A DNA stretch of 38,175 bases from Patescibacteria group bacterium (lineage in GTDB: Bacteria > Patescibacteriota > Minisyncoccia > Phycocordibacterales > CAIRYW01). The stretch is from positions 1 to 38,175 of the forward strand of contig JAZJXR010000025.1 of the NCBI GenBank assembly GCA_040390775.1, written 5' to 3'. Made by a program: the position numbers and the translations under genes. Below, piece after piece: positions 19,558 to 33,235 of this stretch; within the stretch, counting starts at the first letter, position 1; each line of letters opens with the position of its first letter. The notes under the pieces were generated by a model, which ran no database searches, was not told where the DNA came from, and worked only from the letters and a program-made list of their open reading frames with translations.

Positions 19558-22500
19558 ATGAAAAAGATTATCAGAATCATTGCTGGACTTATCCTCATAA
19601 TCCCTGCATTCGCCGGAGCGACTGTACTTTTCCCCGTGAATGGAGGATCGGGCTGGGGCACGCCAGGAGGCATCCAGATGGGCCATCTTATCTATGGAAA
19701 TAATCTAAATCCTTTTGCTACCACATCTGGCGAAGTGACTGGCTATATATTGCAATGGAATGGGGCGATACCAGTATGGGTATCAACTACAACTCTAGGA
19801 AATCAGATATCTGGAAATTACATTACTGCTTTGACTGGCGATGTGACTGCATCTGGCCCAGGAAGCGCCGCAGCGACGCTCGCGACTGTGAATGCGAATG
19901 TGGGCTCATTTACTAATGCAAACATCACTGTGAACGGCAAGGGGCTTGTGACAGCAGCGTCGAATGGCACAGCAGGATCTACTTTCGGCCAAGCGTGGGA
20001 ACTATTCTCTGGCGCTCTCTCACCGACAACATCTGTACCGATCATCGTAAATAATTCGACAAGCACAATTACAAATCTCGTCACGGTAAATGCAAGCTCA
20101 ACCAATGCGACATCTTCGCGAGGATTCTTTGACTTCCTGCGAGTAGCTGGGACTTCTACAGCTAGCCAATTTAATGCGACATCAACCACTGCAACCTCTA
20201 CCTTTGCAAATGGTATTGAAATGAGCGGTGGCTGCTATTCCTTCCTTGGTACATGCTTGCAAACATATATCCAAAATGCGACCGCATATAAATCAGCGGC
20301 AAACTATGCGACTGCCGCAGTATTGCCGGGCACGCCATCATATAACAACGGATCAAGCGGTGTAGGCGCGACGTTGACAGAGATCGGGCTTGGCGCTCTG
20401 ACTGTGGATGGCCAAACTGTATCAGTGGGCCAAAGAATCCTCGTAAAGAATGAGGCCGATCAGACTACAAACGGTGTGTATGTAGTGACAAATGCTGGCT
20501 CTGCCCTCGCAAATTACATACTTACTCGTTCAACAGATTTTAATACTTCAAATGATGTCTATGCGGGCGTGACCGTGCCTGTGCTTGCAGGAGGTACTGC
20601 CAATGGCGACACTGCATGGGTACAGACTACGACAGGCACGATCACAATTGGCAGCTCCAATATTACCTTCATCGAATCTTCATTCGGTACGAATGTCGTA
20701 AATTCTGTCTCAAATTCTGATGGATCACTTACAATTTCCCCAACTCAAGGCGCTGTGATTGCTTCTATCGCACTCGCGCATCCAAATACATGGACTGGCT
20801 TGCAAACTATCAATAACGCTTCCACAACGGCCCTGACGGTGTCTGGCGTGGCTTCTACTACAGTATTACGCATAGATCGTTTGGCTGATGGCTGCCTCAA
20901 CATTGCAAGCGGACTCGTCGGATCGCAGGCTTGTGGTGGGTCAACTTTCGGCCAGTCATGGGAAATCGGTGGCGCTGGTGGCCCTGCAGGATTCCTTTCA
21001 CCTACTACAACGCAAAAGGTATATATCGGCCAAGCTAGCTCTACGATATTTAGCACGGCTTCTACCACTTGGCTTGCTTTGAATGGAGGCACAGTAGGTA
21101 TTGGTACTACAAGCCCAAAAGCTTTACTAGCCATAAATCCCGTCGCTGGTAATGATGACTCTTTCTACATTGGCTCTTCCACTGCTTCTATTTTCCGAAT
21201 AGGAAACAATGGTTTTGTACAATCAAATGCTAAAAATAATGCAATAAACTTTACTTCAGAAGCTGGCCAGCCACAACTTGGAGTATTTACAAATGATGCA
21301 CAAGCTGTAAACAAAGGAGGTTGCATAGGACTTGGAGGAAATATTGACAACGCTGCAATTGATCAAAGACAATTCGGAAATATTTGCGGAAGAAAATTCA
21401 ATAACGTCACAAACTCTGCGGGAGGATATTTAGCTTTTTCTACAGCAAGCGGTGTGGGAGATTCCATGGCAGAAGTAGCAAGAATGACGAATGCAGGAAA
21501 CCTAGGAGTAGGTGATACTACACCAGACTTTAGACTTGAGACTGTAGGAATTAATAACCAAGGATACTTCGGAATCACGAGTCTTACAGGTTCTGATGGT
21601 GATATATTGTTTGTAAATAATGCTGGAAATTTCGGCATAGGATCTACATCTCCATTCTCTACTCTTTCTGTTTCGACTACTACAAACTCTGATGGCACGT
21701 TTTCTCTCTTTGCTGTAGCTTCCTCTACAAACGCTTCACTCTTCAATGTCTATGGAAATGGAAATGTAGCCGTAGGTTCTACAACACCATGGGCCACATT
21801 AGCTGTGAATCCTCTACCCGATATAGCCGCGAATCAATTCGTTGTGGGATCGAGCACGGCTACCAACTTTATCGTAAAAAATGACGGGAAAGTAGGCATT
21901 GGTACTACTACTCCATTTGCCACTCTTGCTGTGAATACAATCGCGGGCGTGTCACCATTCTCTGTCGGAAGCTCTACGGGCACGTACTTCAATATCAATT
22001 CTATTGGCAACGTAGGTATCAGTGCCAATAATTATCTGAATTTCGGTGCTGCATTAGGCTCGACTGGCTATGGTTTTAGAGACAACTCTGGCTCTATAGA
22101 AGTAGCCGATTCTAGTACTACTCCTACATTCGTGCCTGTTAACGATTATCAAATGTCCGACAGAGGTTATAGAGCTTTGGGTAGCAAAATCGCTGGGGAA
22201 ACACTATATGGCAGCGTCTCTGATATGACCACTAATAACGCTTTGACAGATAATGCGGGAAGATTCTCTGCGATTTATATTCCAAAGCAAACAACGATTG
22301 TTGGATGTGAATTCTTCATGGTGACGCAAGGTAGCTATACTGCCGATCAAACAAATCAATGTGCCCTCTATTCATATTCAGGAGGTACTTTGACTCAAGT
22401 GGCGTCATCTACAAATAACGGAAACCTATGGAAAGCAGCCAATAATACATTTATAAAAGAACCTTTTGCGCTTACATATTCTGCTTCTCCTGGGTTATAT

Positions 22501-22719
22501 TTCGTGGCAACCCTCTATAACAACTCTGCTCAAGTAACAGCACCGACATTAGGCTCTTTTGCAGCATTTTTAGCTGCGAGTGTAAGCACACAAGACTTTA
22601 CAAATAGCGCTAAATTATCAGCTTCACTAGGTACCCAAAATACCCTAACTACATCAAGCGCTGCTTCAGCACTAGGTAATACTACAGCTCGTTATTGGGC
22701 TGCAGTATATAGTAATTAA
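19558..22719 (+). CDS. Long tail fibre protein (1053 aa) with an N-terminal signal-peptide-like segment
   Basis: Fibre-type motif ITALTGDVTASGPGSAAATLATVNANVGSFTNANITVNGKGLVTAASNG, many Gly/Thr/Ser repeats, and N-terminus MKKIIRIIAGLILIIPAFA/GA. Confidence 0.6.
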   Translation: MKKIIRIIAGLILIIPAFAGATVLFPVNGGSGWGTPGGIQMGHLIYGNNLNPFATTSGEVTGYILQWNGAIPVWVSTTTLGNQISGNYITALTGDVTASGPGSAAATLATVNANVGSFTNANITVNGKGLVTAASNGTAGSTFGQAWELFSGALSPTTSVPIIVNNSTSTITNLVTVNASSTNATSSRGFFDFLRVAGTSTASQFNATSTTATSTFANGIEMSGGCYSFLGTCLQTYIQNATAYKSAANYATAAVLPGTPSYNNGSSGVGATLTEIGLGALTVDGQTVSVGQRILVKNEADQTTNGVYVVTNAGSALANYILTRSTDFNTSNDVYAGVTVPVLAGGTANGDTAWVQTTTGTITIGSSNITFIESSFGTNVVNSVSNSDGSLTISPTQGAVIASIALAHPNTWTGLQTINNASTTALTVSGVASTTVLRIDRLADGCLNIASGLVGSQACGGSTFGQSWEIGGAGGPAGFLSPTTTQKVYIGQASSTIFSTASTTWLALNGGTVGIGTTSPKALLAINPVAGNDDSFYIGSSTASIFRIGNNGFVQSNAKNNAINFTSEAGQPQLGVFTNDAQAVNKGGCIGLGGNIDNAAIDQRQFGNICGRKFNNVTNSAGGYLAFSTASGVGDSMAEVARMTNAGNLGVGDTTPDFRLETVGINNQGYFGITSLTGSDGDILFVNNAGNFGIGSTSPFSTLSVSTTTNSDGTFSLFAVASSTNASLFNVYGNGNVAVGSTTPWATLAVNPLPDIAANQFVVGSSTATNFIVKNDGKVGIGTTTPFATLAVNTIAGVSPFSVGSSTGTYFNINSIGNVGISANNYLNFGAALGSTGYGFRDNSGSIEVADSSTTPTFVPVNDYQMSDRGYRALGSKIAGETLYGSVSDMTTNNALTDNAGRFSAIYIPKQTTIVGCEFFMVTQGSYTADQTNQCALYSYSGGTLTQVASSTNNGNLWKAANNTFIKEPFALTYSASPGLYFVATLYNNSAQVTAPTLGSFAAFLAASVSTQDFTNSAKLSASLGTQNTLTTSSAASALGNTTARYWAAVYSN
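21088..22030 (+). repeat. Five to six degenerate coding repeats of about 40-45 aa (core N-x-G-N-V-G-I-G-T-T-x-P-x-A-T-L-A-V-N)
   Basis: GTVGIGTTSPKALLAINP, NLGVGDTTPDFRLETVG, NFGIGSTSPFSTLSVS, NVAVGSTTPWATLAVNP, KVGIGTTTPFATLAVNT, NVGISANN. Confidence 0.65.
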
Positions 22720-22728
22720 CCAAAATAT

Positions 22729-22971
22729 ATGAACGAAAAATATGAAGCAACAGAAGATGGAAAATTGAGGTGCTACAAAGCGGAAGATGTTTCTATAAAC
22801 GATCTTTTAAATCAGAAAGAAAAATATTCTGCATCTAGGCAGCAATTTGTGGATCAATTAGCTGAACAAACAGAAACTGCAAATGCCAAAATATCTGAAT
22901 TGGATGGGCAAATAGCTAGTGTAGATATTCTGATTGAAGAAGCAAGAAAATTAGGATTGGTGAATGAATAA
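22729..22971 (+). CDS. Hypothetical coiled-coil protein (80 aa)
   Basis: ATG ORF after the fibre gene. No recognisable motif. Confidence 0.5.
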   Translation: MNEKYEATEDGKLRCYKAEDVSINDLLNQKEKYSASRQQFVDQLAEQTETANAKISELDGQIASVDILIEEARKLGLVNE

Positions 22972-23176
22972 TATGAAAGCAACACTCACTATAAGAATAG
23001 TATTGATTGTGGCCGTGATACTCGGATTCTTTGTCTATATAGGCCATGAAGCAAACAACAAAATCATTCAAAAGCGTTGTTCTGCATTTAAAACGCAGCG
23101 CGAAGCATTGAAACATTATCAATCTTCCCTCGATCGAGACAGGGATGGAAAACCATGTGAAAATTTACCAAAATGA
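22964..23176 (+). CDS. Membrane-anchored Excalibur (Ca-binding) domain protein
   Basis: N-terminal TM segment (LTIRIVLIVAVILGFFVYI) followed by CSAFKTQREALKHYQSSLDRDRDGKPCE, which matches the Excalibur C..DxDxDG..CE pattern. Confidence 0.5.
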   Translation: MNNMKATLTIRIVLIVAVILGFFVYIGHEANNKIIQKRCSAFKTQREALKHYQSSLDRDRDGKPCENLPK

Positions 23177-23436
23177 AAGGATCAAAAGGACAAATTTCGA
23201 TTTCTTTAGGATTGGCTTGGGCTGGAATTGTAGCCATCATTAGTATGATATCTTCGTATTACACTACCAATTCTTCTATCACTGACAAGGTAAATAACAG
23301 CGCCTCTGCTCTTAATGCAGAGATATCTTCTGATCGGCAAGATATAGCATCATTAAAAACTTCCATTGAATACATCAAAGATAGTCAAGCTGAAACACGT
23401 AATGATGTCAAAACTATTCTAAAAATACTCAAATGA
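23173..23436 (+). CDS. Single-TM protein with a C-terminal coiled coil (holin or lysis-accessory candidate)
   Basis: TM segment ISLGLAWAGIVAIISMISSYY. ATGA overlaps on both sides within the lysis block. Confidence 0.4.
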   Translation: MKGSKGQISISLGLAWAGIVAIISMISSYYTTNSSITDKVNNSASALNAEISSDRQDIASLKTSIEYIKDSQAETRNDVKTILKILK

Positions 23437-24359
23437 ACGAAGAATATATAAAACAAGACGGATTCGGACTGCATCCATTACCACCCAAAGCACCAAAAGA
23501 GCAGGAAGACTTCTCGCTAGCCGGGGTATTCGGCATTCCTGCCCTACCCTGCCTGCCAGAAGGCGATTTCTTCGTCTCTAGCCCTATAAAGATCAAGACG
23601 CAGGCATTGGACGACAATTGCTCTGGGTGCGCCACAGCAGCTGTTTCAGAGGATCAGGAAGGAGAAGAGCTATCGGGTGAATTCCAATTTTTCGTCACGA
23701 AGACTATCGTGCTCAAAGGATCTAAAACATGGGGCGCAGATCTGCGCTCTGCAGCACTTTCATCTGTAAACGTAGGATCGCTGCCGCAATCCATCGCTGA
23801 TATGCATCTAAAAGATCCCCACGATCGAGATGCTGTATTGAATCCCGATACTTGGCCGTGCGCCCTGTTTGAAATAGCCAAACGATATGCCAAAGGATCG
23901 ATGTTTAAAATTGACTATCCATGGGATACCTTCACAAACATCCGCGCGGCCCTATATCAGCATCGCTATGCAATCACATCAGAAAAAAACTCTATCCTGC
24001 TCGGCAGCAAATGGTATCCAGATTGGACACACGCTCCTAATGGCGTAATCCCAAAATTCTATAGCCAAGATAATGCAGGCGGGCATGCTTTCAAGTGCTT
24101 TGGCCAGAAACTCATTAACGGAGAAATATATCTAGCAATGCAATTATCAAATGGGGAAGAGATTGGCGATAAAGGAGAATTCTATTTTCCAAAGGATGTG
24201 GTAAACAAGGAATTCACGCCATACGGCCAATTCATGCTAAACGACATGCCAAAAGAAAAAGCAAAATTCCTTTCAAATAATGGCCTATCTGTAAACTCCA
24301 GCCCGATTGCAAAAGGGCTTGCACACGTTATCCACTTCTTCGATAGATTCTTTCTCTAA
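23433..24359 (+). CDS. Papain-like (C1-family-like) cysteine peptidase, endolysin candidate
   Basis: Q..NCSGCATAAV (compare papain QGSCGSCWAF), NAGGHAFKCFG (compare DHAVAAVGY), and LSNGEEIGDKGEFYF (compare NSWGxxWGxxGY). Confidence 0.45.
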   Translation: MNEEYIKQDGFGLHPLPPKAPKEQEDFSLAGVFGIPALPCLPEGDFFVSSPIKIKTQALDDNCSGCATAAVSEDQEGEELSGEFQFFVTKTIVLKGSKTWGADLRSAALSSVNVGSLPQSIADMHLKDPHDRDAVLNPDTWPCALFEIAKRYAKGSMFKIDYPWDTFTNIRAALYQHRYAITSEKNSILLGSKWYPDWTHAPNGVIPKFYSQDNAGGHAFKCFGQKLINGEIYLAMQLSNGEEIGDKGEFYFPKDVVNKEFTPYGQFMLNDMPKEKAKFLSNNGLSVNSSPIAKGLAHVIHFFDRFFL

Positions 24360-24377
24360 TGAGAGTATAATTATTTT

Positions 24378-24881
24378 ATGGAACCCGAAATCTATGAGGA
24401 TGAAGGAGATAGAGGAATTGCTGCGGGAACGTGCGCACCGATAAATCTCCAGACTTCGAATTCAATCAAACTCTATGAAGCAGCAGCAGCTGCTTTCAAT
24501 GCCGGCAGATCTCTTGTACCACCAAACTACAGCAAGATGCTTGGCTGTGCTATCTCTATCAATACTCTTTACCGAGAAACTTTCGGTCATGAGATTGGGG
24601 GAGAAGCATCGACATACCAGTTCTGGCAAGCCATAAAAAACAGCAATGATTTTATCCAAGTGCAAATACCTCTCCCCGGCGACATTATCATTTCCCCTAC
24701 TGGCACACAGCCATCACAGAGCCCACTACGGAATGGACATGTGGGTGTCGTGGCGAAATTCGGCATTCTCTCAAACAACTCCGCTAATGGACTATTCCAA
24801 GAACACTATACCCTCGGCAGCTGGGCGGATCGATATGTGAAGCTGGGTGGATTTCCGATATTTTATTTTCGCGCAGTTTAA
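24378..24881 (+). CDS. CHAP / NlpC-P60-like cysteine peptidoglycan hydrolase
   Basis: Candidate catalytic Cys in KMLGCAISIN and His in RNGHVGVVAKFG, with GDIIISP between them. Lies in the lysis-block context. Confidence 0.5.
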   Translation: MEPEIYEDEGDRGIAAGTCAPINLQTSNSIKLYEAAAAAFNAGRSLVPPNYSKMLGCAISINTLYRETFGHEIGGEASTYQFWQAIKNSNDFIQVQIPLPGDIIISPTGTQPSQSPLRNGHVGVVAKFGILSNNSANGLFQEHYTLGSWADRYVKLGGFPIFYFRAV

Positions 24882-24897
24882 TCGCTAATTTATTTCT

Positions 24898-25101
24898 ATG
24901 GAAACATATTCAACAACGCAGACAACCAATATTGCAGCATTCGCAGCGGCCATATCCCTCATCGTATCGCATCCAAATCTAAGCAATCCTGCAGACGTGC
25001 AGACACTAATCACCGCTCTCGTGATTGCTGTGACCGCAATCATCTCTTGGATCAACCGATTCAAAAAGGGCGATGTGACGGTGACTGGGCGGAGACTCTA
25101 A
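24898..25101 (+). CDS. Holin candidate (67 aa, two TM segments, basic C-terminus)
   Basis: TM segments NIAAFAAAISLIVS and LITALVIAVTAIISWI, followed by RFKKGD. Sits between two hydrolase genes. Confidence 0.45.
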   Translation: METYSTTQTTNIAAFAAAISLIVSHPNLSNPADVQTLITALVIAVTAIISWINRFKKGDVTVTGRRL

Positions 25102-25105
25102 ATAT

Positions 25106-25516
25106 TTGTCTAAAAACTTACAAAAAGGCTTGGCAAGCCTCATCGTATTGGCATCCCTCGCAAGCCCTGCGCTTGCTGTGGCAGAAGAAACGCCCACACC
25201 TCTATCAATCCCCGAACTGATATCAAAACTCGCCCTAGAGGCAAATTTGAGCCAAAGAGATGTGGCTGTGTTCAAAAAGATAGCTAGCTGTGAAAGCGGT
25301 ATGAGACAATTCGATGAAAACGGTAAACTGCTGCGCGGGCTCGTAGACGATCGAGATATCGGTATTATGCAGATCAATACCTTCTACCATGGTGCTCGGG
25401 CCAAAGAACTTGGCCTAAGCCTTTACAACAGCGAAGACAATATCCGATTCGGTGTGATGCTTTATAAAGACGGCCCAGAGAAGTTTTGGAGTGCATCCGA
25501 GCATTGCTGGGGATGA
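25106..25516 (+). CDS. Secreted lytic transglycosylase (SLT / lysozyme-like)
   Basis: TTG start. Signal peptide LASLIVLASLASPALA/VAEE. Motifs CESGMRQF..DIGIMQINTFYH resemble the catalytic Glu-Ser and GxMQ motifs of SLT domains. Confidence 0.6.
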   Translation: MSKNLQKGLASLIVLASLASPALAVAEETPTPLSIPELISKLALEANLSQRDVAVFKKIASCESGMRQFDENGKLLRGLVDDRDIGIMQINTFYHGARAKELGLSLYNSEDNIRFGVMLYKDGPEKFWSASEHCWG

Positions 25517-25517
25517 T

Positions 25518-25622
25518 ATAATCATTCTGCTGGTCAGCTCTAATTTGAACTAGAGCCAGGTAATGTGGCGGTGCAATAATCACTGGTCAACTAATAGCCT
25601 GTGGAAGTAATCACATAATCAG
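25518..25622 (+). repeat. Iteron-like TAATCA repeats (4 copies in 105 bp)
   Basis: ATAATCA at 25518-24, ATAATCAC at 25576-83, GTAATCAC at 25607-14, ATAATCAG at 25615-22. Confidence 0.45.
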
Positions 25623-25636
25623 CCACGGCCAGCTTT

Positions 25637-25645
25637 TGATATAAT
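25637..25645 (+). promoter_or_regulatory. Extended -10 promoter TGaTATAAT inside the non-coding region
   Basis: Perfect TG-n-TATAAT. No long ORF lies downstream; a hairpin and a terminator follow. Confidence 0.35.
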
Positions 25646-25651
25646 ATCTCT

Positions 25652-25720
25652 ACCCTTGCATAGGTCGAATCATGCAAAGACGACGCAAAAATATCCCGTA
25701 CTCTGGGATATTTTTGTTTT
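25652..25720 (+). ncRNA. Candidate small RNA of about 70 nt (promoter to terminator unit)
   Basis: Predicted TSS about 7 nt after the TATAAT. Hairpin 1 is TTGCAT (25656-61) / ATGCAA (25672-77). Hairpin 2 is the 12-bp terminator stem plus TTTT. Only a 16-codon ORF lies inside. Confidence 0.2.
25686..25720. terminator. Intrinsic terminator, possibly bidirectional, ending the late/lysis transcription unit
   Basis: CAAAAATATCCC gtactct GGGATATTTTTG forms a 12-bp stem with a 7-nt loop. An A tract lies 5' and TTTT lies 3'. Confidence 0.5.
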
Positions 25721-25726
25721 AGGCAC

Positions 25727-25768
25727 TGTGGATAACGAGTGGATATTACGGATGATTTTTGTGGAAAA
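25727..25768. promoter_or_regulatory. DnaA-box cluster (putative origin core)
   Basis: TGTGGATAA at 25727-35 is the perfect complement of TTATCCACA. AGTGGATAT (25738-46) and TGTGGAAAA (25760-68) share its orientation. Opposite-orientation TCATCCCCA (25830-38) and TTATCCCCT (25863-71) lie beyond an AT-rich tract. Confidence 0.5.
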
Positions 25769-25839
25769 AGCTGTTGGTAAACTGTGATTAAAAAGTAGAT
25801 AACTTGTCCTAAAATTAAAAAGGTCAAAATCATCCCCAG

Positions 25840-25852
25840 ATCTGTCACAGAT
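25840..25852. promoter_or_regulatory. Palindrome ATCTGT-c-ACAGAT (operator candidate)
   Basis: 6+1+6 perfect inverted repeat about 55-70 nt upstream of the first early gene. Confidence 0.3.
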
Positions 25853-25875
25853 TATTAGTAAGTTATCCCCTGTTT

Positions 25876-25911
25876 TTGACATTTGACTTATATACATCAT
25901 TAAATTATGAT
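25876..25911 (+). promoter_or_regulatory. Early promoter candidate (tandem TTGAC motifs)
   Basis: TTGACA at 25876-81 and TTGACT at 25883-88. TTGACT, a 17-nt spacer, then TATGAT (25906-11). This would favour ATG 25922 as the start codon. Confidence 0.35.
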
Positions 25912-26494
25912 GGGGAGAATTATGGACAAAAACACCAGAATTGATCATGTGAATATGAGGAGAATTGCTAATGTACTTGAGAATTTTTCAAAAGAAATTA
26001 ATTGTTCTTATGAAGAATTAGTGAGTAAAAATAGGAGATCAGATATGGTACGAGCTAGAGCAACGCTTACTTTGGCTTGTTTGAAAGAAGGATTTTCATA
26101 TTCCAGTATTGCAAAATTTCTTAATAGAGATCATACAACCATCATGTACTTAGCCAATGCGTACAAAGATGATTTTTCAATAAGAAGGATTGTGGCTGAA
26201 AAACCTATAAAAAAAATACTAAAACCTATAAAAGAACCAAGAGAGATCGAGCCCGGTGTACGCGTACCCCTAAACCATAGTATCTATAATGAAGTATATA
26301 TAAAATTTCAAGCAAGATGCGCTGTATGTAATTTTGACGAAGTCACAGAGGTTCATCATATAATCCCAGTGAAATTAGGTGGTTCAAACGATATAGAGAA
26401 TTTGATACTTTTATGCCCGAATCATCATAAATTAGCTGATAAAGGTATGTTGAATATAAAAGATATCCCCAATTCATCCACGCCGTCCACATAG
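25907..26494 (+). CDS. DnaA domain IV (DnaA-box-binding HTH) fused to an HNH endonuclease
   Basis: RRSDMVRARATLTLACLKEGFSYSSIAKFLNRDHTTIMYLANAY matches the DnaA C-terminal signature, including RDHTT. The C-terminal CAVCNF..EVHHIIPVKLGGSNDIENLILLCPNHHKLAD is an HNH core. No AAA+ motifs. Alternative start at ATG 25922. Confidence 0.7.
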   Translation: MMGRIMDKNTRIDHVNMRRIANVLENFSKEINCSYEELVSKNRRSDMVRARATLTLACLKEGFSYSSIAKFLNRDHTTIMYLANAYKDDFSIRRIVAEKPIKKILKPIKEPREIEPGVRVPLNHSIYNEVYIKFQARCAVCNFDEVTEVHHIIPVKLGGSNDIENLILLCPNHHKLADKGMLNIKDIPNSSTPST

Positions 26495-26581
26495 CATTCT
26501 TCTTATTATTAAGTATTTATATATAAAAGATCTAGGGCGCTGGGGATAGGAAAAACTTGGCTTGCTCGATTTGACGTGGGG

Positions 26582-26587
26582 TATAAT
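26582..26587 (+). promoter_or_regulatory. Perfect TATAAT located 6 nt before ATG 26594
   Basis: TATAAT-atttct-ATG. The -35 is weak (TTGGCT at 19-nt spacing). Confidence 0.3.
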
Positions 26588-26593
26588 ATTTCT

Positions 26594-27016
26594 ATGAAAC
26601 CAAAATTTAAGAGAAAATTAGTATTCTTCCTTTCCATAAATCCGTACTCCCAAGATTTGTGCGTAGTACTAAACGGTCAATTTTCGGATGCTATTGCCGA
26701 AATCAGAAAATTGAAAACGGAAAATGCGAAATCTATCGTAAATTTCTACGAAGAAAACAAAGAAATCTACAAAAATGATCATGAGGTAGGAAAAGGATGT
26801 GCGAAGCTTTTTACCGAATTGCCTGTAGGTTATGTGATGCTGATCGAACATTGCGATAGCTGGATTGAAAGCGTAGGACTTGTGGTGCATGAATCATTGC
26901 ATCTCGTCCATTACATCCTCCGCCGGGCAGGTATTGATCTATGCAAGGATAGCGAAGAGGCTTTTACTTATCTTCAAGAAAAGATTGTAGAAGATATTCT
27001 GGCAAAGATGTATTAG
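26594..27016 (+). CDS. Small HExxH zinc-metallopeptidase-like protein
   Basis: VVHESLHLVHYI contains HExxH. About 140 aa. An upstream GTG at 26576 is an alternative start. Confidence 0.45.
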   Translation: MKPKFKRKLVFFLSINPYSQDLCVVLNGQFSDAIAEIRKLKTENAKSIVNFYEENKEIYKNDHEVGKGCAKLFTELPVGYVMLIEHCDSWIESVGLVVHESLHLVHYILRRAGIDLCKDSEEAFTYLQEKIVEDILAKMY

Positions 27017-27017
27017 A

Positions 27018-27031
27018 AGATATCCACAGGT
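27018..27031 (+). repeat. AGATATCCACAGGT element, copy 2
   Basis: Identical to 18576-18589. It begins 1 nt after the stop at 27014-16 and ends 5 nt before a -35 hexamer. Confidence 0.5.
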
Positions 27032-27036
27032 AAGCA

Positions 27037-27064
27037 TTGCGTCTGCATTGCATTGTGATATACT
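27037..27064 (+). promoter_or_regulatory. Sigma70-like promoter with an extended -10, 6 nt before ATG 27071
   Basis: TTGCGT, 16-nt spacer, TGaTATACT. It shares the 13-mer ATTGTGATATACT with 687-699. Confidence 0.45.
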
Positions 27065-27070
27065 GCCTGC

Positions 27071-27217
27071 ATGAAGAAAGATATTATGCAAAACATCGTA
27101 TTCCGTGTGCCATCAAAGCTCCGGAGAGTATTTATTATCAAAGCAAACAAAGAAAGCACGCCGTCGAGCGTGCTGCGCGCCTTTGTCGGGGCGTATGTAA
27201 ATAATCAAGCAAAGTAA
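27071..27217 (+). CDS. Ribbon-helix-helix (CopG/Arc-like) DNA-binding protein, 48 aa
   Basis: MKKDIMQNIVFRVPSKLRRVFIIKANKESTPSSVLRAFVGAYVNNQAK shows a beta-strand IVFRVP followed by two helices, typical of the RHH fold. Below the ORF-track cutoff. Confidence 0.45.
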   Translation: MKKDIMQNIVFRVPSKLRRVFIIKANKESTPSSVLRAFVGAYVNNQAK

Positions 27218-27218
27218 T

Positions 27219-27455
27219 ATGTACTACGTTTTTTTAGCAATTTTTGGTCTTTTAATTCTGATGCTGCGCCGCAATAATCTCATTTATGAAGAGAGGAGAA
27301 GGGTGCTCGATGTGATATCAAAAATGGCGGATGAATCAATCGAAAAGGGCGAAGAGTGGAAAGTACACTACAAAATCCTAGATCGCTATACCTACAATCA
27401 GATGATGCTTAAATTCTGGCGGCCGGTGAGCTGGTTTTATCAAGATATTCAATAA
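27219..27455 (+). CDS. Small membrane protein (78 aa)
   Basis: N-terminal TM segment YYVFLAIFGLLILML followed by a charged domain. Confidence 0.5.
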   Translation: MYYVFLAIFGLLILMLRRNNLIYEERRRVLDVISKMADESIEKGEEWKVHYKILDRYTYNQMMLKFWRPVSWFYQDIQ

Positions 27456-27460
27456 ACAAA

Positions 27461-27526
27461 ATGAGAAATATTATTACATTTATCGTAGCGGTATTGGTGG
27501 GAGGAAGCTTGGCAATTTTAATTTAA
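27461..27526 (+). CDS. Tiny hydrophobic peptide (21 aa), speculative
   Basis: MRNIITFIVAVLVGGSLAILI, followed by a terminator hairpin. Confidence 0.2.
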   Translation: MRNIITFIVAVLVGGSLAILI

Positions 27527-27537
27527 AAATCGAAAAT

Positions 27538-27565
27538 AGATGAAGGGGATCAACCCTCTTCATCT
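27538..27565 (+). terminator. Intrinsic terminator-like hairpin
   Basis: AGATGAAGGGG atcaa CCC(t)CTTCATCT gives 11 bp with one bulge. A second small hairpin and an AT/T-rich tract follow. Confidence 0.4.
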
Positions 27566-27603
27566 GCTCTCGAAGCAGAGATTATTATTTAAAATATTCA
27601 TTT

Positions 27604-27807
27604 ATGAAAACAAAAATAATGAAAGTGGCGATAGTGGCAGCGGCAGTGATGTCTTTTGCTCCTTTAGCGCTCGCGTCTTGTGTTCCAGCAGGGCTCGGTC
27701 ATATTTACTATGATCCTACGTACGTTCCTTTCTATCAAGAAAAGACTGTATTCGTAGAGGACTCTGGTGCGACACAGCCAGTACAGCCAGCGGCGCCTGT
27801 ATGGTAG
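27604..27807 (+). CDS. Lipoprotein (67 aa)
   Basis: Signal peptide with lipobox: MKTKIMKVAIVAAAVMSFAPLALA-S-C. Hairpins flank the gene on both sides. Confidence 0.6.
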   Translation: MKTKIMKVAIVAAAVMSFAPLALASCVPAGLGHIYYDPTYVPFYQEKTVFVEDSGATQPVQPAAPVW

Positions 27808-27828
27808 ATGGCAGATAGAGCTTTCAGA

Positions 27829-27850
27829 CTGGAGATCCTAGGATCTCCAG
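27829..27850. promoter_or_regulatory. Perfect 22-bp palindrome CTGGAGATCCTAGGATCTCCAG
   Basis: Read directly from the sequence. It can form a 9-bp stem with a 4-nt loop, but no U tract follows. Confidence 0.4.
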
Positions 27851-27880
27851 AAATGAGGACTTTATAAATCAGAAAAATAA

Positions 27881-28438
27881 ATGTGGAATTCAACCTTTAA
27901 AACCAAATCATTTGATGAGATCGCTAAAGCGCGAAGAATCAAAGATGATAAAAATCGGGCCAACATTCTCAAAAATGGAATGACTACCTTCTACACAAAT
28001 CCTAGAAAGGCTCTTCGAAAGCACTCTACAGCCCCCACTGCGCGCTTAGAAAGGGCTCTCTGGGCGATCTTCTCCCTGTTTGTGAAGATACGCGACGGCT
28101 GGCGATGCTTTCTCTGTGGCAAGCGTTCTGTGGGCTCTGGCATGCATGCCGGACACTTCATCGAAGATGCTGTTGGTGGTGTGGCGCTCCGATACCACGA
28201 AATGAACGTGCACGCTGAATGTTCTTTCTGTAATCTATACCGAGAAGGCCACAAGGAAGCCTATGAAAAGAAAATGCTTGAGACATATGGCGAAGAAGCT
28301 GTACAAAAGCTAAAGGATCTAAAAAACACCACAATCTATGGCTTTGACTACAAAACTCAAACAGCCTATTACAAAGAGCAGGTATCAAACATGAAACTTC
28401 ACGGTCCATTATCATTTAACGAATCCATAGGATATTAA
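27881..28438 (+). CDS. ninG: NinG/Rap-like structure-specific (HNH-type) endonuclease
   Basis: LFVKIRDGWRCFLCGK....HAGHFIE....LRYHEMNVHAECSFCNLYREGH matches the NinG family core (IRxRD, C..C, GH, N..QC..CN). Confidence 0.7.
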   Translation: MWNSTFKTKSFDEIAKARRIKDDKNRANILKNGMTTFYTNPRKALRKHSTAPTARLERALWAIFSLFVKIRDGWRCFLCGKRSVGSGMHAGHFIEDAVGGVALRYHEMNVHAECSFCNLYREGHKEAYEKKMLETYGEEAVQKLKDLKNTTIYGFDYKTQTAYYKEQVSNMKLHGPLSFNESIGY

Positions 28439-28439
28439 A

Positions 28440-28880
28440 ATGTCTCTAAAAAACTCTACAAGCAATACCACTCGAACATTCGAGAAGATTCAAAAAGTGC
28501 TTTCAGAGCACGGGGCGAATAAGATCATGTTTGACTATGAGAAAAATCTACCTTCTTGCATCACTTTCCAAATCGATGTGGAGGGCAATCCGATATCATT
28601 CCGGCTTCCTGCATTGATCGACAACGTAATGCAGATCATGTATGGCGGCAAGGATAGATACGGAAATATTAAGAAAATCACGGATATACAGCGCGAGCAA
28701 GCATACCGCACTGGCTGGGCCAATATCCGAGATTGGGTAGATGCCCAGATGGCGCTCATAGACACAAAGCAGGTAAAACTGATTCAAGTGTTCCTGCCAT
28801 ATGCTGTCACAAAATCCGGGCAGACTGTATTTGAAAAGATGGCCGAGAATCCCCAATTTTTACTAGGTGAATCAAACTAA
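28440..28880 (+). CDS. Hypothetical protein (146 aa)
   Basis: ATG starts 1 nt after the ninG stop. No motif recognised with confidence. Confidence 0.6.
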   Translation: MSLKNSTSNTTRTFEKIQKVLSEHGANKIMFDYEKNLPSCITFQIDVEGNPISFRLPALIDNVMQIMYGGKDRYGNIKKITDIQREQAYRTGWANIRDWVDAQMALIDTKQVKLIQVFLPYAVTKSGQTVFEKMAENPQFLLGESN

Positions 28881-28881
28881 A

Positions 28882-29085
28882 ATGCCCAAACCCACACAAC
28901 AAGAACAATTCCTCCGCATTAAAGATTTCGTAGATTCTGTATCTATGATGGCGAATAAGCTGCTGCGCGATGTACCCAAAACCCTTGAGATCCTCGAGCA
29001 ATCGATGGAGACCGACACGAGCCAGACTGGCCCGGCTTTGCTACAGCTTCTCAAAGCATTGAGAGAGGATAAGGAGGGATTTTAG
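28882..29085 (+). CDS. Hypothetical protein (67 aa from ATG 28882)
   Basis: The ORF track starts at 28867. ATG 28882 lies 1 nt after the upstream stop and avoids the overlap. Confidence 0.5.
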   Translation: MPKPTQQEQFLRIKDFVDSVSMMANKLLRDVPKTLEILEQSMETDTSQTGPALLQLLKALREDKEGF

Positions 29086-29092
29086 CCGTTCT

Positions 29093-29230
29093 TTGAAAGG
29101 TAAGAGAGAAATCGCCCCTCCCGTAGAGATTGTGGGCCGCCCGCCTAATGCACAGAATAAGCGGGACTTGGAAACAAGTGTACACGCTTTCCGCAATCTC
29201 TACAGGGGTGGTGAAGGGATTATTAAATAA
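29093..29230 (+). CDS. Speculative 45-codon TTG-initiated ORF filling the 154-nt gap
   Basis: The frame is open across the whole gap. AAGGAGGG lies 15 nt upstream, which is too far for a canonical SD. A structured RNA is the alternative reading (see findings). Confidence 0.25.
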   Translation: MKGKREIAPPVEIVGRPPNAQNKRDLETSVHAFRNLYRGGEGIIK

Positions 29231-29239
29231 AGATAAAAT

Positions 29240-29425
29240 ATGAACAAATTTGTGTACAAAGTAAGTGGGTTGAAAGGTTCTGTTGTTTATACCGACTTTC
29301 AATCTGAAGTAGAAATAACAATTGAGGCGAAGAAAATCAGCGAAGCAACAGATAAAATAAGGCAATATTTTGCTGATAATTTTCTCCAAGCAAATCAAAT
29401 AGTCTTGATTAAGATTGCTCTTTAA
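29240..29425 (+). CDS. Hypothetical protein (61 aa)
   Basis: ATG ORF, first gene of a tightly coupled gene chain. Confidence 0.5.
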   Translation: MNKFVYKVSGLKGSVVYTDFQSEVEITIEAKKISEATDKIRQYFADNFLQANQIVLIKIAL

Positions 29426-29451
29426 TTTTTACCCCCTAAAGACAAATCACT

Positions 29452-29949
29452 ATGAAAACATATAAAGTAAAACCAAATCGCAATCAATCACCAGAAGAGA
29501 TGCTAAAGGCTACTGGATACAAACTATACACTGATAGCGATGTAGTGAAGACTATACCAAAAGGCGAAGGCGAATCAGAGATGCATTTCTTTAAGCTTGA
29601 TAGATATGTCACAGATGAAGAGCTGGAAAAAGAATATACAGATAGAGGCTTAATCCCTGCCGATCCGTATTCCATGCTAGCTCTTCCTACTAAAGATCTT
29701 GATGAAATGAAATACGTAGGAACGCATTGGAAAGATGCCGACAGAAAGTGGTGCTTTGCCGCGTGGAGCCTCTGGCGCGGCGAGCGTTACGTGCACGTCA
29801 GTCGCCGCGACGCGCACTGGCGCGGCCCTTGGTTCTTTGCTGGCCTTCGCAAGTTAGATCTTGGCGCTAAAACCCTTGAATCCAAGCCCTCAAAACCTTT
29901 GACTTTTTGCCCTTTCTGCCAGCATGAGCTAAAAATAACAATAGAATGA
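29452..29949 (+). CDS. Hypothetical protein (165 aa) with a conserved-looking Trp/Arg-rich C-terminal half
   Basis: ..HWKDADRKWCFAAWSLWRGERYVHVSRRDAHWRGPWFFAGLRK.. is encoded by a locally GC-rich stretch. C-terminal CPFC. Confidence 0.6.
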   Translation: MKTYKVKPNRNQSPEEMLKATGYKLYTDSDVVKTIPKGEGESEMHFFKLDRYVTDEELEKEYTDRGLIPADPYSMLALPTKDLDEMKYVGTHWKDADRKWCFAAWSLWRGERYVHVSRRDAHWRGPWFFAGLRKLDLGAKTLESKPSKPLTFCPFCQHELKITIE

Positions 29950-30125
29950 CTAAACCAAAATCAAAAGAGAGGATAGCAAAATTGTCTAAAGTAGAAAAAG
30001 CAATTGTTTACCTAGCCGAAATGATGCAAGACCCTATGCACGACCAGTATAGAATAAGAGCACAGGTAATAGATATTCTTGGCTATGAATGGCAACCACT
30101 CCCCTCTACAAAACCAAAGCGATGA
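29946..30125 (+). CDS. Hypothetical protein (59 aa)
   Basis: ATGA overlaps at both ends. Below the ORF-track cutoff. Confidence 0.45.
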   Translation: MTKPKSKERIAKLSKVEKAIVYLAEMMQDPMHDQYRIRAQVIDILGYEWQPLPSTKPKR

Positions 30126-30547
30126 AAGAAGAAACACCAATAGATAGCTTTGCGGAAAGATTGAATGTATTTTGGAATGAACACGACGGCGATACTTTCT
30201 ACAAAGATGAACTTAGGAGCTTCATCAAAGAAGAAAAATCCCTCTCCTACTCCCAAGGCCATAAGAGTGCTGTGGAGGAGGTGAGGGGGATATGGGATAA
30301 TTTGGAGATTCTTTTAGAAAATACGCTTTCAACAGAGATTCTCGCCCGCAGCCCAGAAGATACAAATATTGAAAGAAATATTCGCAAACCACTACAAAAC
30401 ATCCTCTCCCTCCTATCCCACTTAGATGAGGAGAAATGTAATCACATGATCCTCACACCTTCACCAGAGCATAACGGTGGCGCGTGGTGCTACGAAAATA
30501 AACCTTGTCCGTGGCACCCTATTACCAAAGACGATAATAATAAATAA
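30122..30547 (+). CDS. Hypothetical protein (141 aa from ATG 30122)
   Basis: In frame with track ORF 30089. ATG 30122 forms an ATGA overlap with the upstream stop. Confidence 0.55.
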   Translation: MKEETPIDSFAERLNVFWNEHDGDTFYKDELRSFIKEEKSLSYSQGHKSAVEEVRGIWDNLEILLENTLSTEILARSPEDTNIERNIRKPLQNILSLLSHLDEEKCNHMILTPSPEHNGGAWCYENKPCPWHPITKDDNNK

Positions 30548-30548
30548 A

Positions 30549-30707
30549 ATGATCCACTACAAAGACAAAACATTCTGCGCAAGTAAGGTAAGCGAGCATA
30601 CCTGTGGCCGAGAGCTAACAAAAGAAGACGAAGAGGATGCGAAGAGAATAGGATTGCCAATAGCGTACGGCAAGTTTTGTGAAGAGATTATCCAAGAAGA
30701 AGTATGA
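30549..30707 (+). CDS. Small Cys-containing protein (52 aa)
   Basis: ATG starts 1 nt after the upstream stop. The track ORF 30477 is an upstream GTG extension overlapping the previous gene. Confidence 0.45.
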   Translation: MIHYKDKTFCASKVSEHTCGRELTKEDEEDAKRIGLPIAYGKFCEEIIQEEV

Positions 30708-30898
30708 GATACAAACATAAACACAAATGGGTACTAGAATACACTAACGCTGGAACTTGCGGAGAAGGATTGCTTTACTTCTGCAAGCGGGGCAAATGTG
30801 GGCGATGCAAAGAATTTAAGGAAACTACTGGTGAAATCCACATCGCTTATAGAAATGAAATCAATAGATTAAAAGAACTTATCCAAGAAGAGCAATGA
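30704..30898 (+). CDS. Small Cys-rich (zinc-ribbon-like) protein (64 aa)
   Basis: CGEGLLYFCKRGKCGRC. ATGA overlaps at both ends. Confidence 0.5.
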   Translation: MRYKHKHKWVLEYTNAGTCGEGLLYFCKRGKCGRCKEFKETTGEIHIAYRNEINRLKELIQEEQ

Positions 30899-31089
30899 AG
30901 AACTTTCTTTACTACATCATTATTTACGCAGGAATGTGTATAGGATTACGATTTGAAGGCATACACAGTATCTTCGATTGGATTGTGCAAATGTTCTGTA
31001 TTATGCCAGCTTTTTATTTATATGCTGTTGGATTTTGGAAAGTATCGAACGAAGAATTACCAGCCCCCCAAGAAGAAATAAACAAATGA
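30895..31089 (+). CDS. Small membrane protein (64 aa, two hydrophobic segments)
   Basis: FLYYIIIYAGMCIGL and MFCIMPAFYLYAVGFW. Confidence 0.5.
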   Translation: MKNFLYYIIIYAGMCIGLRFEGIHSIFDWIVQMFCIMPAFYLYAVGFWKVSNEELPAPQEEINK

Positions 31090-31376
31090 AAAACAAACCT
31101 TTTTTTAAAGAATGGGAAGCCACAACGAATCAGCTAGCCGAGCAATTCGCCCTGAAGTATTTCGGTAAAGACGTAGAAACCTATTGGATAGCCGATGAAA
31201 TTGGCGGTGTGTATTCTGTAGCGGATTATTTCTTCAACGTGAATACTATGGCCGATTTTCTGCGCTATAATTACACTCGAAAATCAATGTTTGAGTATTA
31301 TGATTATCATTTAAAATGCCTTGAGAACAAAGAAAGTCCTATTAATATTAAAGCTTGGAGGCATCTAAAAAAATGA
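31086..31376 (+). CDS. Hypothetical protein (96 aa from ATG 31086)
   Basis: The track ORF 30978 extends upstream over the previous gene. ATG 31086 gives an ATGA junction. Confidence 0.55.
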   Translation: MKNKPFFKEWEATTNQLAEQFALKYFGKDVETYWIADEIGGVYSVADYFFNVNTMADFLRYNYTRKSMFEYYDYHLKCLENKESPINIKAWRHLKK

Positions 31377-31534
31377 AAGACACCATAGAAATACCAAGGA
31401 AGTGGCTGGAGAGATTGATGCAGGTAGCTAAATTCGTAGACAAATCGCAAGATTACAAAATAAAAAACGCTTATATTTCTCAAGTACTCGGCTACATAGA
31501 ATCTGCGGAGTACTTATTAGATAACAAACAATAG
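31373..31534 (+). CDS. Hypothetical protein (53 aa)
   Basis: ATGA overlap upstream. MKDTIEIPRKWLERLMQVAKF... Confidence 0.45.
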   Translation: MKDTIEIPRKWLERLMQVAKFVDKSQDYKIKNAYISQVLGYIESAEYLLDNKQ

Positions 31535-31536
31535 AA

Positions 31537-31707
31537 ATGAAAGAGAAACAAATAGAGGAGATGATAAAAGAATGGCAAGATGTTTATTATGAATGGGTTA
31601 AAAGTTTTGATCCAAGAGAGCTTCAACAGGTAGCCTCCGACTTCTGGCTCTCTAAAGTAAAAGCCGCATATGAGCAAGGATTATCAGAACAAGAGAATGG
31701 GAGATGA
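31537..31707 (+). CDS. Hypothetical protein (56 aa)
   Basis: Starts 2 nt after the upstream stop. ATGA overlap downstream. Confidence 0.45.
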   Translation: MKEKQIEEMIKEWQDVYYEWVKSFDPRELQQVASDFWLSKVKAAYEQGLSEQENGR

Positions 31708-32042
31708 CATACGAATTAGCTAAAAAATTGAAGGATGCAGGATTTCCACAAAAGAGTGGGAATTATTATGTTGGTGATGAAGTGTGGGATGAAACAGCAC
31801 AGAGCGATTATGAGACTAGGGCGACACCAAAAAGAGACAATTGGATTTATGCCCCTACCCTCTCCGAACTCATAGAGGCATGTGGGCCCACTTTCCGAAA
31901 ACTAAAAGCACCTACCTCGACAACAAATCAATGGATAGCGGCGCAATTCAAAGCAGAAGAAAATAACGAACCAGCATATGCTGTAGGAAGTACCCCCGAA
32001 GAAGCAGTAGCAAATCTCTGGCTCGTATTGAATGAAAAATGA
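31704..32042 (+). CDS. Hypothetical protein, YELAKKLKDAGFP family, paralogue 1
   Basis: Shares its N-terminus, the PxLSELIEA core and the TPEEAVANLWLV tail with 34035..34360. Confidence 0.6.
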   Translation: MTYELAKKLKDAGFPQKSGNYYVGDEVWDETAQSDYETRATPKRDNWIYAPTLSELIEACGPTFRKLKAPTSTTNQWIAAQFKAEENNEPAYAVGSTPEEAVANLWLVLNEK

Positions 32043-32155
32043 AACCCCTAGACACTCTTGTACTACTAGGATACACACTGTTTTGGATGCCGGTGGAGGT
32101 GGTGTGGGAAGTGTCGGGATTTATTATAAAAACTACGCTAAAATATACTAAATGA
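32039..32155 (+). CDS. Small hydrophobic protein (38 aa)
   Basis: ATGA overlaps at both ends bridge the neighbouring genes. Confidence 0.35.
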   Translation: MKPLDTLVLLGYTLFWMPVEVVWEVSGFIIKTTLKYTK

Positions 32156-32424: not shown

Positions 32425-32504
32425 AAGGATAGGATAACTTACGTGCTGGCAATACTTTTTTAGTATAAACTTTGAATGGCAACGCTCTTCATTGAAAGGA
32501 AAAT

Positions 32505-32624
32505 ATGCAAATACTATTCATCATAGCGAGCATGTTCTACTACGCGGATGATGGAGAATGGGATTTCAGCCGCGCTGACATTCCACCACCCACCACCGAG
32601 AATCAAGGGGTCTACATACCATAG
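32505..32624 (+). CDS. Speculative small ORF (39 aa)
   Basis: ATG preceded by AGGA. It fills the gap before 32631. Confidence 0.3.
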   Translation: MQILFIIASMFYYADDGEWDFSRADIPPPTTENQGVYIP

Positions 32625-32630
32625 CCAATC

Positions 32631-32834: not shown

Positions 32835-32841
32835 AAAGGAT

Positions 32842-32982: not shown

Positions 32983-32988
32983 ACAAAA

Positions 32989-33233: not shown

Positions 33234-33235
33234 AA

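Follow-up and report, generated by a model that had tools for sequence, protein, structure and literature searches.

A DnaA-box field beside a phage gene for a DnaA-domain-IV-HNH protein: probable upstream arm of a mobile, origin-like cassette

Introduction

The bacterial replication origin, oriC, combines arrays of DnaA boxes with a basal unwinding system of boxes, a spacer and DnaA-trios (PMC8287927; PDB 8BTG). A region of similar appearance lies between the late and early genes of a phage in the DNA stretch described here, contig JAZJXR010000025.1, which is 38,175 bp long and is referred to as the window. It is followed by a gene for a protein of 190 amino acids (aa) in which domain IV of DnaA is joined to an HNH nuclease (DnaA-IV-HNH). 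The gap between the late and early genes appears to be a composite of two unrelated parts, a transcription boundary on the left (25514-25721) and a cassette arm on the right (25727-25921). On balance, comparison of sequences suggests that the right half is probably the binding field, or upstream arm, of a mobile, origin-like DnaA-IV-HNH cassette of low guanine-plus-cytosine (GC) content.

As in oriC, the window uses the consensus 9-mer TTATCCACA, a strong box is followed by weaker boxes of the same orientation at 11-bp spacing, and two facing arms enclose an AT-rich tract. The 11-bp spacing is that of the low-affinity arrays in E. coli oriC. Relatives of the gene carry a pair of boxes followed, after a spacer of some 4 nt, by a run of TAA/TAG trios and an AT tract, which is the plan of the native dnaA-dnaN spacer of Saccharibacteria. 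Unlike oriC, the module of the window is situated in a phage with neither dnaA nor dnaN beside it, is split by a nuclease gene with which it travels, and has a degenerate trio run.

The origin-binding domain of an initiator has been found fused to a nuclease of the homing-endonuclease type in Odn (Gp88) of phage ICP1, which cuts the corresponding origin (PMC8263062). The protein of the window is likewise a phage-encoded chimera of an initiator domain and a nuclease, with a specificity borrowed from the initiator (PMC8263062), although here both this specificity and the cutting are predicted. Odn consists of a satellite RepA_N domain and a T5orf172 nuclease, whereas DnaA domain IV and HNH are combined here. 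Furthermore, the odn gene is not reported to have target sites of its own on either side or to lie within an origin, and the target in the present case would be the near-universal DnaA box rather than the iterons of one satellite.

Free-standing HNH homing endonucleases are known in phages, and the homing endonuclease I-TevI represses its own gene at an operator resembling its target. The gene of the window resembles the former in being a small, intergenic HNH open reading frame (ORF) of low GC content with its own promoter. Also as in homing endonucleases, the family is sporadic among near-identical genomes, with allele replacement at one site (L085 versus L323), and one copy (L243) is inserted within its presumed recognition sequence. 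The boxes over the gene's own promoter suggest self-repression, as in I-TevI. In contrast to homing endonucleases, the DNA-binding module is DnaA domain IV and not NUMOD or another helix-turn-helix motif, the gene has arrays of intact consensus sites beside it instead of a destroyed target, and homing is putative.

DnaA boxes paired with Rep iterons and a rep gene are found in the DnaA-dependent origins of plasmids and prophages such as P1 oriR, pSC101, F and R6K. The window shares with these the presence of DnaA boxes beside AT-rich DNA in a mobile replicon dependent on the replication proteins of its host. It differs in having no iterons (the TAATCA repeats are promoter hexamers) and in that no Rep gene was found in it. 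HNH proteins also occur as terminase-associated endonucleases of cos phages, of which HK97 gp74 is the type. Like these, the proteins of the present family are small, and some of their genes adjoin terminase genes, but they have an added DnaA domain IV, the copy of the window is far from the terminase, and the family also occurs in a bacterial origin.

The DnaA-IV-HNH protein

Both domains of the protein are recognised by Pfam above threshold, PF08299 with 39.8 bits (cut-off 31.5) and PF01844 (HNH) with 40.6 bits. A profile of the family matches DnaA structures with E = 8e-15 to 5e-13 over profile positions 4-89, which is the whole of domain IV, and the matched structures include the domain IV/DNA complexes of E. 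coli and M. tuberculosis. The base-contacting residues of the E. coli domain (1J1V) we take to be R399, P423, D433, H434, T435 and H439. Upon alignment to 1J1V, an arginine of the family falls on R399 and the RDHTT motif on R432-T436. The histidine of this motif is invariant in 56 aligned family sequences and the preceding arginine nearly so. The window protein departs at two contact positions, with serine at P423 and tyrosine at H439. The original prediction, made from the letters of the window alone, held that the gene beside the gap encodes a DnaA-box-binding domain, and the profile, the structure matches and the conserved RDHTT show this to be a genuine, complete domain IV.

The nuclease motif CxxC...HH...N...CPNHH is conserved in the family alignment. 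Residues C133, C136, C165, H169 and N160 are invariant in the 56 sequences, and the conservation of H145, H146 and H168 is 90% or higher. With the family alignment as input, AlphaFold2 gave a model with a predicted local distance difference test (pLDDT) score of 86, compared with 50 for a single-sequence prediction. This model superimposes onto the complex of the M. tuberculosis DnaA DNA-binding domain with its box (3PVP) with a template-modelling (TM) score of 0.74 and a root-mean-square deviation of 1.8 Å. Since the fold of domain IV, the contact residues and the HNH residues are conserved, the protein is expected to bind DnaA boxes and to have nuclease activity.

Exhaustive searching with HMMER, against 1.84 billion representatives, brought up about 70 full-length relatives (cluster representatives) of 160-200 aa having both domains. 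The fusion relatives came from this search, a word-indexed protein search having returned matches to the HNH domain only. The family is recurrent and apparently undescribed. No description of a DnaA-IV-HNH fusion, or of an HNH gene in a dnaA-dnaN origin, was found in the full-text literature, the coverage of which was partial and does not amount to proof of novelty.

The DnaA-box field

The original prediction described an origin-like non-coding region of 390 bp at 25517-25906, and a direct check of the sequence places all the motifs listed for it at the positions given. The gap is real, and is the longest non-coding stretch of the genome, as had been claimed. Its length needs correction, because the public gene call starts at the ATG at 25922, which makes the gap 405 bp long. 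A rival gap of 332 bp, at 37334-37665, turned out to be coding, as the ORF of the terminase large subunit runs across the window junction.

The features of the gap and of the adjoining gene are collected in Table 1. The box statistics use the E. coli consensus. Ten box-like 9-mers with at most two mismatches are present in the region, whereas simulated sequences of its own composition contain 1.96 +/- 1.37, and none of 5000 reaches ten. The region is the densest box window of the genome, other low-GC windows averaging 1.7 boxes and containing at most 5. Boxes with at most one mismatch number 19 genome-wide, against 9.4 +/- 2.8 expected, and perfect boxes are found at 478, 25727 and 33764, as noted earlier.

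Table 1. Positions in the window of the parts of the gap, the nuclease gene and its flank, and a second box cluster
Feature	Position	Strand	Description
Four tandem -10-like promoter elements	25514-25645	+	TGaTATAAT 25514-25522, TGcAATAAT 25572-25580, CATAAT 25614-25619, TGaTATAAT 25637-25645
Small hairpin	25656-25677	+	CTTGCAT...ATGCAAG; RNA fold; downstream of last promoter
Intrinsic terminator	25686-25721	both	12-bp perfect inverted repeat with GGG/CCC top; A tract before, TTTTTGTTTT tract after
Distal DnaA-box array, 11-bp register	25727-25802	-	TGTGGATAA-like on + strand; mismatches: TGTGGATAA 25727 (0, perfect), AGTGGATAT 25738 (2), TGTGGAAAA 25760 (1), 25772 (2), 25783 (2), 25794 (2)
AT-rich spacer between box groups	25803-25829		Same layout in other family loci and in native Saccharibacteria origin
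Opposite-orientation box-like 9-mers	25830-25896	+	TCATCCCCA 25830 and TTATCCCCT 25863 (2 mismatches each), TTATATACA 25888; 6+1+6 palindrome ATCTGT-C-ACAGAT between, 25840-25852
Promoter-like element of nuclease gene	25877-25921	+	TTGACA/TTGACT -35 (tandem TTGAC motif TTGACATTTGACT, 25877-25889), 17-nt spacer, TATGAT -10 (25883-25911), Shine-Dalgarno GGGGAG; 10/12 match
Gene for 190-aa protein	25922-26494	+	DnaA domain IV at about 10-90, linker, HNH nuclease with CCCH zinc site at about 125-175
Downstream arm	26463-26535	+	Box-like ATATCCCCA 26463, TCATCCACG 26474 and CCGTCCACA 26483 in last 32 nt of ORF; TAG; AT-rich flank with TTTATATATAAAAG
Second cluster, three same-orientation DnaA boxes	436-525	-	TTTTCCACA 436, TTATCCACA 478 (perfect), TTATCCAGA 517

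The three same-orientation boxes of the original prediction are present, and they are the beginning of a longer array, continued by boxes at 25772, 25783 and 25794. Among periods of 9 to 14, a period of 11 fits best, with a score of 36/63 that equals the maximum of 200 random genomes. Because the three additional boxes keep the 11-bp register, the AT tract that had been seen at 25780-25830, although present, is made in part of boxes. The opposite-orientation boxes, the palindrome and the tandem TTGAC motif are confirmed as well. The proximal boxes abut or overlap the promoter of the nuclease gene in the manner of operators. The GC content is 0.33 in the box field and 0.34 in the gene, compared with 0.44 in the genome. 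No homology at the DNA level was detected between the box field of the window and other family loci, the conservation being one of motifs.

Gene 257-676, situated between terminase and portal, contains the second box cluster of the window, all three boxes of which have the same codon phase. The junction that holds it is the one occupied by the cassette in L085 and L323. The boxes of this cluster are candidates for further binding or target sites.

Family loci and the mobility of the cassette

Loci of the family were gathered from IMG/VR, metagenomes, genomes and Logan by searches seeded on the HNH motif, so that their contexts are a sample and not a census. In the 250 bp upstream, family genes have on average 2.0 boxes with at most one mismatch, compared with 0.098 for 174 non-redundant control genes, taken from these same searches, that encode HNH only. 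A common plan is seen in 14 independent loci, in which distal boxes in the orientation of TGTGGATAA are followed by an AT-rich stretch and by proximal boxes in the orientation of TTATCCACA. A further box, for example TGTGTATAAT or TGTGCATAAT, often overlaps the -10 element of the gene itself. Pairs of boxes in the same orientation peak at a lag of 11 (26 versus 1.3 in controls) and of 22 (18 versus 1.1), and 13 of the 14 loci contribute to these peaks.

In one locus, L084 (2790-2860), there are few consensus boxes upstream and repeated GGGGAC/GGGGTG motifs (CGGGGACAGTTCGGGGACGGAATGGGGTG) are found instead. With these motifs and the variants TCATCCCCA and TTATCCCCT of the window in mind, the DNA specificity may have drifted within the family.

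The cassette occurs in a variety of places. It is directly before the terminase in L083, L244 and L347, and between the terminase large subunit, which it directly follows, and the portal in L085 and L323. It follows an SSB gene in L341, is among small phage genes in L342, L343 and L345, and is inside dnaA-dnaN in L243. The positions next to terminase genes are those expected if the HNH protein were a terminase-associated enzyme of the cos-phage type, with the boxes as recognition elements of a packaging site and the ends of the genome in or near the gap. The second box cluster of the window, just past the terminase gene, and the situation of the gap between late and early genes, where many linear phage genomes end, agree with such a site. 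Nevertheless, a role in packaging is very improbable. In the window, 10.4 kb separate the gene from the small terminase subunit (36860) downstream of it, there is no visible terminal repeat or step in depth, and the gene is missing from relatives that share the terminase and portal. Moreover, the family is found in a bacterial chromosomal origin, to which packaging has no relevance.

The mobility of the cassette is apparent from L085 and L323, whose terminase and portal proteins are 99-100% identical while the family genes at the same site are 42% identical. The DNA of L085 (973-1691) and L323 (2564-3260) is 94% identical up to the first two boxes, after which the identity drops inside the box field, and both loci have box fields. 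This is a natural allele replacement. Ten more distant relatives (within L324-L336) lack the gene, and their terminase-portal junctions, 43-590 bp long, have no box cluster. The box field does not form a fixed part of a phage replication module. Rather, the field moves together with the DnaA-IV-HNH gene to differing positions and is absent from relatives without the gene.

A Saccharibacteria origin that contains the gene

The closest homolog of the window protein, P0019 (47% identity), is encoded between dnaA and dnaN in a Saccharibacteria chromosome (L243). The order of genes is rnpA-yidD-yidC-jag, dnaA, boxes, the DnaA-IV-HNH gene and dnaN. This arrangement was found in 8 contigs from several samples, and the interrupted origin must therefore still function. 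The Saccharibacteria relatives L348-L351, whose DnaN is 75-87% identical, do not have the gene, and their dnaA-dnaN spacer is uninterrupted and 202-224 bp long. It is homologous to the spacer between dnaA and the gene in L243 and carries the native boxes, ending with TTATACACATATCCACA, GGGT, TAATAGTAATAGTAAT, TTATATATAT and, after these, the dnaN ATG. One or more boxes, a short spacer, at least three trios with a central A, and AT-rich DNA make up the basal unwinding system as published (PMC8287927). The native Saccharibacteria spacer has this same plan (PMC8287927), the likeness covering the order of the parts and not their strand orientation.

The native box pair of L243 is divided by the gene, which stands between TTATACACA and TATCCACA. 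From the second box onward the sequence is again homologous to the empty allele, and the first TAA of the trio run serves as the stop codon of the ORF. Assuming that the recognition sequence is the DnaA box, the gene of L243 is thus inserted in or beside its own recognition sequence. Presence and absence at the same site among close relatives is seen both here (L243 versus L348-L351) and in the phages (L085 and L323 versus L324-L336).

It is from the box fields that accompany the gene, the relatives without the gene and the Saccharibacteria insertion that the region of the window is read as the upstream arm of a mobile cassette. The family behaves as an origin-directed element of the homing type, being found inside an origin core, present or absent among close relatives, with exchanged alleles and with origin-like flanks that it carries along. 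The most economical reading, we infer, is that the protein binds these boxes and that the family is an origin-directed nuclease of the homing type. The status of the flanking origin-like DNA, as a conserved target or as a passenger of co-conversion, varies between cases, this DNA being native in Saccharibacteria but imported in the L085 lineage.

The 3' flank of the gene

In phage contexts the last 40 or so nucleotides of the family ORFs contain 1-3 boxes in the TTATCCACA orientation, followed by about 4 nt, TAA, a TAATAGTAATAG-like run and a TTATATATAAAA-like tract. At 6 independent family loci, a box followed, no more than 14 nt away, by at least four strict trios was found not further than about 400 bp from the gene, where 0.02 were expected from the 10 matches in 2.57 Mb of control loci. 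These six relatives and the native Saccharibacteria origins have a strict trio run, whereas a strict run of at least four [T/A]A[G/A] triplets has 0 matches in the whole window genome. The looser published rule of at least three NAN triplets within 16 bp of a box (PMC8287927) is too permissive in AT-rich DNA to be informative. The downstream arm of the window (26463-26535) can be read as a degenerate copy of the box, trio run and AT tract of the family.

The C-terminal tails of the proteins are variable (YPQP, STCPQP, and STPST in the window) and are encoded by DnaA-box DNA (5491-5525 in L243 and 26463-26491 in the window). Because TAT CCA CA reads Tyr-Pro-Gln/His, the conservation of these tails is at the level of DNA and not of protein.

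The question of a working origin

The original prediction took the gap for an origin on account of its oriC-like grammar. This grammar is real and statistically strong, and the same family sits in a true chromosomal origin, but a working phage origin is not established by the evidence of skew and trios. In such an origin, host DnaA would bind the perfect box and spread along the weak boxes in the 11-bp phase. The opposite boxes and the AT-rich DNA would permit unwinding and loading of the host helicase, and the DnaA-IV-HNH protein would be a passenger, a regulator or a priming nickase. The origin itself may have arrived with the cassette. If the module is an origin, only its left arm had been seen, as the core of the unwinding type would be at the 3' end of the gene, outside the predicted coordinates, and is degenerate here.

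An origin of this kind is possible, but we regard it as doubtful. A high-affinity box with an array of boxes in the same orientation 2 bp apart, arms that converge and an AT spacer do match the grammar of oriC, and the native Saccharibacteria origin shares the layout. Family cassettes carry a core of box, trios and AT-rich DNA that fits the published basal unwinding rule (PMC8287927), and the origin of L243 must work in its interrupted state. Replication proteins are not recognisable in the phage, and a search elsewhere in its genome for tandem repeats or iterons that might serve as an alternative origin found none. On the other hand, the strict trio run is missing from the entire genome. The cassette is dispensable in the L085 lineage, where relatives are without both gene and boxes, and its positions between terminase and portal or before the terminase are unusual for phage origins. 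The phage is represented by assembled contigs of flat depth only.

An extremum of the cumulative GC skew had been predicted near 25.5-25.9 kb. The detrended curve does have its minimum at 25237, with a change at 25.2-25.5 kb, which in itself would fit an origin. However, the change has no antipodal partner and coincides with the boundary between late and early genes. The skew at third codon positions is best split into two segments, 20000-25500 and the rest, again with no antipodal break that could mark a terminus. GC skew is for these reasons not diagnostic, and speaks neither for an origin nor against one.

A more far-reaching proposal would be that the DnaA-IV-HNH proteins are a new class of origin-homing endonucleases, which land in DnaA-box/DnaA-trio cores, move between oriC and phages and carry a working oriC-like origin. 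In the window this would be the only origin of the phage, and a nick by HNH might help to prime synthesis. We think this unlikely.

The left half of the gap

The TAATCA repeats, which had been described as iterons, occur at 25519, 25577, 25608 and 25616. Four copies in 110 bp are reached by 0 of 300 random genomes. Their spacing of 58, 31 and 8 bp is irregular, and three of the four are the tails of -10-like hexamers at 25514, 25572 and 25614. With no Rep gene to accompany them, they are better read as tandem promoters. An origin of the iteron type was rejected on the irregular spacing, the failure to find any Rep-like protein and the absence of tandem repeats. The extended -10 promoter that had been predicted at 25637-25645 is confirmed, and has an identical second copy at 25514-25522. 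These two are the only matches to TGNTATAAT in the genome, and both are on the gene strand.

The strong hairpin with A and T tracts that was noticed earlier is present at 25686-25716, with an RNA folding energy of -22.2 kcal/mol (z = -3.6), and is a canonical intrinsic terminator. It can act on both strands, since an A tract precedes the hairpin and the TTTTTGTTTT tract follows it. The terminator ends 5 bp ahead of the first DnaA box, and hairpins or terminators directly precede the box field in L083, L084 and L347 too. A 162-nt contig of low depth from a sister sample matches the hairpin (25685-25720) and nothing more, with small indels. It is probably an unrelated hairpin of similar sequence.

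Transcription from the last promoter (25637) through the small hairpin to the terminator would give an RNA of about 70 nt, and from all the promoters RNAs of about 70-200 nt. An Rfam scan of the region, including the RNA between promoters and terminator, gave nothing credible, and no convincing antisense target of the 70-nt RNA was found in the genome. In this arrangement the promoters at 25514-25645 would fire into a terminator. In the proposed scheme, the tandem promoters, of sigma-70 type, the small hairpin and the terminator would close the late (lysis) operon and insulate the genes downstream.

Host DnaA is a known transcription factor, and the gap as a whole could be an ordinary control region consisting of a late terminator, early promoters and boxes that serve as operators for host DnaA, the domains of the neighbouring protein being incidental. 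Promoters and a terminator are plainly present, late and early genes meet here in a genome with all genes on one strand, and boxes overlap promoter elements. This explanation is improbable nonetheless. It leaves unexplained why the phased box field follows DnaA-IV-HNH genes and not those for HNH only (2.0 versus 0.098 boxes), and why a box/trio flank is conserved at the 3' end of the gene.

The phage genome

The window is a complete circular phage assembly, cut inside the gene of the terminase large subunit. This is seen from the ORF of this protein, which reads without a break through the end-to-start junction, from about 37284 to 260 (37284-38175 joined to 1-260). A terminal repeat was looked for in the window and not found. 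All genes are on the + strand. The small and large terminase genes are followed by structural genes up to about 22.7 kb, lysis-like genes up to 25516, the gap, and small early genes up to 36852. The gap thus divides late and lysis genes from early genes, as had been predicted, although the assignment of the lysis-like genes is weak, with CHAP and SLT matches below threshold. The coding density was overestimated at more than 94%, and is about 93% with the gene set used here.

Most early proteins match no family. Those recognised include two junction resolvases, NinG/Rap (27881-28438) and RusA (33427-33789), and a GroEL-like chaperonin of 518 aa (34763-36319; PHROG 5725, 2.8e-70; Pfam Cpn60_TCP1). 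None of the window proteins is recognisable as a DNA polymerase, helicase, primase or initiator, the early region (25907-38175) has no recognisable recombinase either, and no tRNAs were found in the genome. The second-longest non-coding stretch, 374 bp at 32835-33208, has a GC-rich hairpin with a T run (GCACCGCT...GACGGTGCGATTTT) and a promoter-like TATATAAT, and is probably a second terminator/promoter boundary within the early region.

No close relative of the phage was found among 50,697 phage records, either by DNA or by the proteins of the flanking genes, nor in an IMG/VR search with the two flanking proteins. Logan yielded a single 4-kb contig, identical in sequence to the phage. The phage sequence is present only in assembled contigs of one metagenome, with a flat depth of 8.5 and no joints. 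Relatives of the terminase are numerous, yet share almost nothing else with the window, and could therefore not supply a homologous junction.

Proposed mode of action

The cassette would consist of the upstream arm 25727-25921, the core gene 25922-26494 and the short downstream arm 26463-26535. The protein would read DnaA boxes through its DnaA-like domain, and the phased distal array together with the promoter-proximal boxes would be its own binding field. Occupation of this field may lead to autorepression of a potentially toxic nuclease, as the boxes over the promoter of the gene suggest by analogy, and to non-cutting occupancy of the cassette's own copy. The same specificity would steer HNH to clusters of DnaA boxes elsewhere, namely in the origins of the host, of competing elements and of relatives without the gene.

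Several points weigh against reading the right half of the gap as the arm of a nuclease cassette. Binding, cutting and repression are all inferred from sequence. No relative of this phage was found, and the presence/absence polymorphism is known from other family loci and not from the site in the window. A helically phased array of many boxes with an AT spacer exceeds the needs of a simple operator, and looks exactly like an origin. The phage must have some host-dependent origin, because it has no recognisable initiator, helicase, primase or polymerase, and its genome offers no other candidate in the form of iterons or tandem repeats. Finally, a nuclease directed at DnaA boxes should be a danger to the genome that encodes it, in which there are 3 perfect boxes, and how self-cutting would be avoided is unexplained.

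Implications

A DnaA-box cluster beside a phage gene annotated as "DnaA C-terminal domain" should not be called an origin before it has been checked for a cassette of this kind. If the proposed reading is true, the target of the nuclease would be the DnaA box, the cis-element that is most conserved in bacterial replication. The idea of an origin-directed nuclease, known from one Vibrio phage acting against its satellite, would then extend to a target that almost all bacteria and numerous plasmids and phages possess. At 190 aa the protein is small, its sites can be given to the base, and an origin occurs naturally as both an empty and a filled allele (L349 versus L243). It would also follow that a selfish gene can inhabit the unwinding core of a chromosomal origin without killing the origin, and a route by which oriC-like origins come into phage genomes would be suggested as well.

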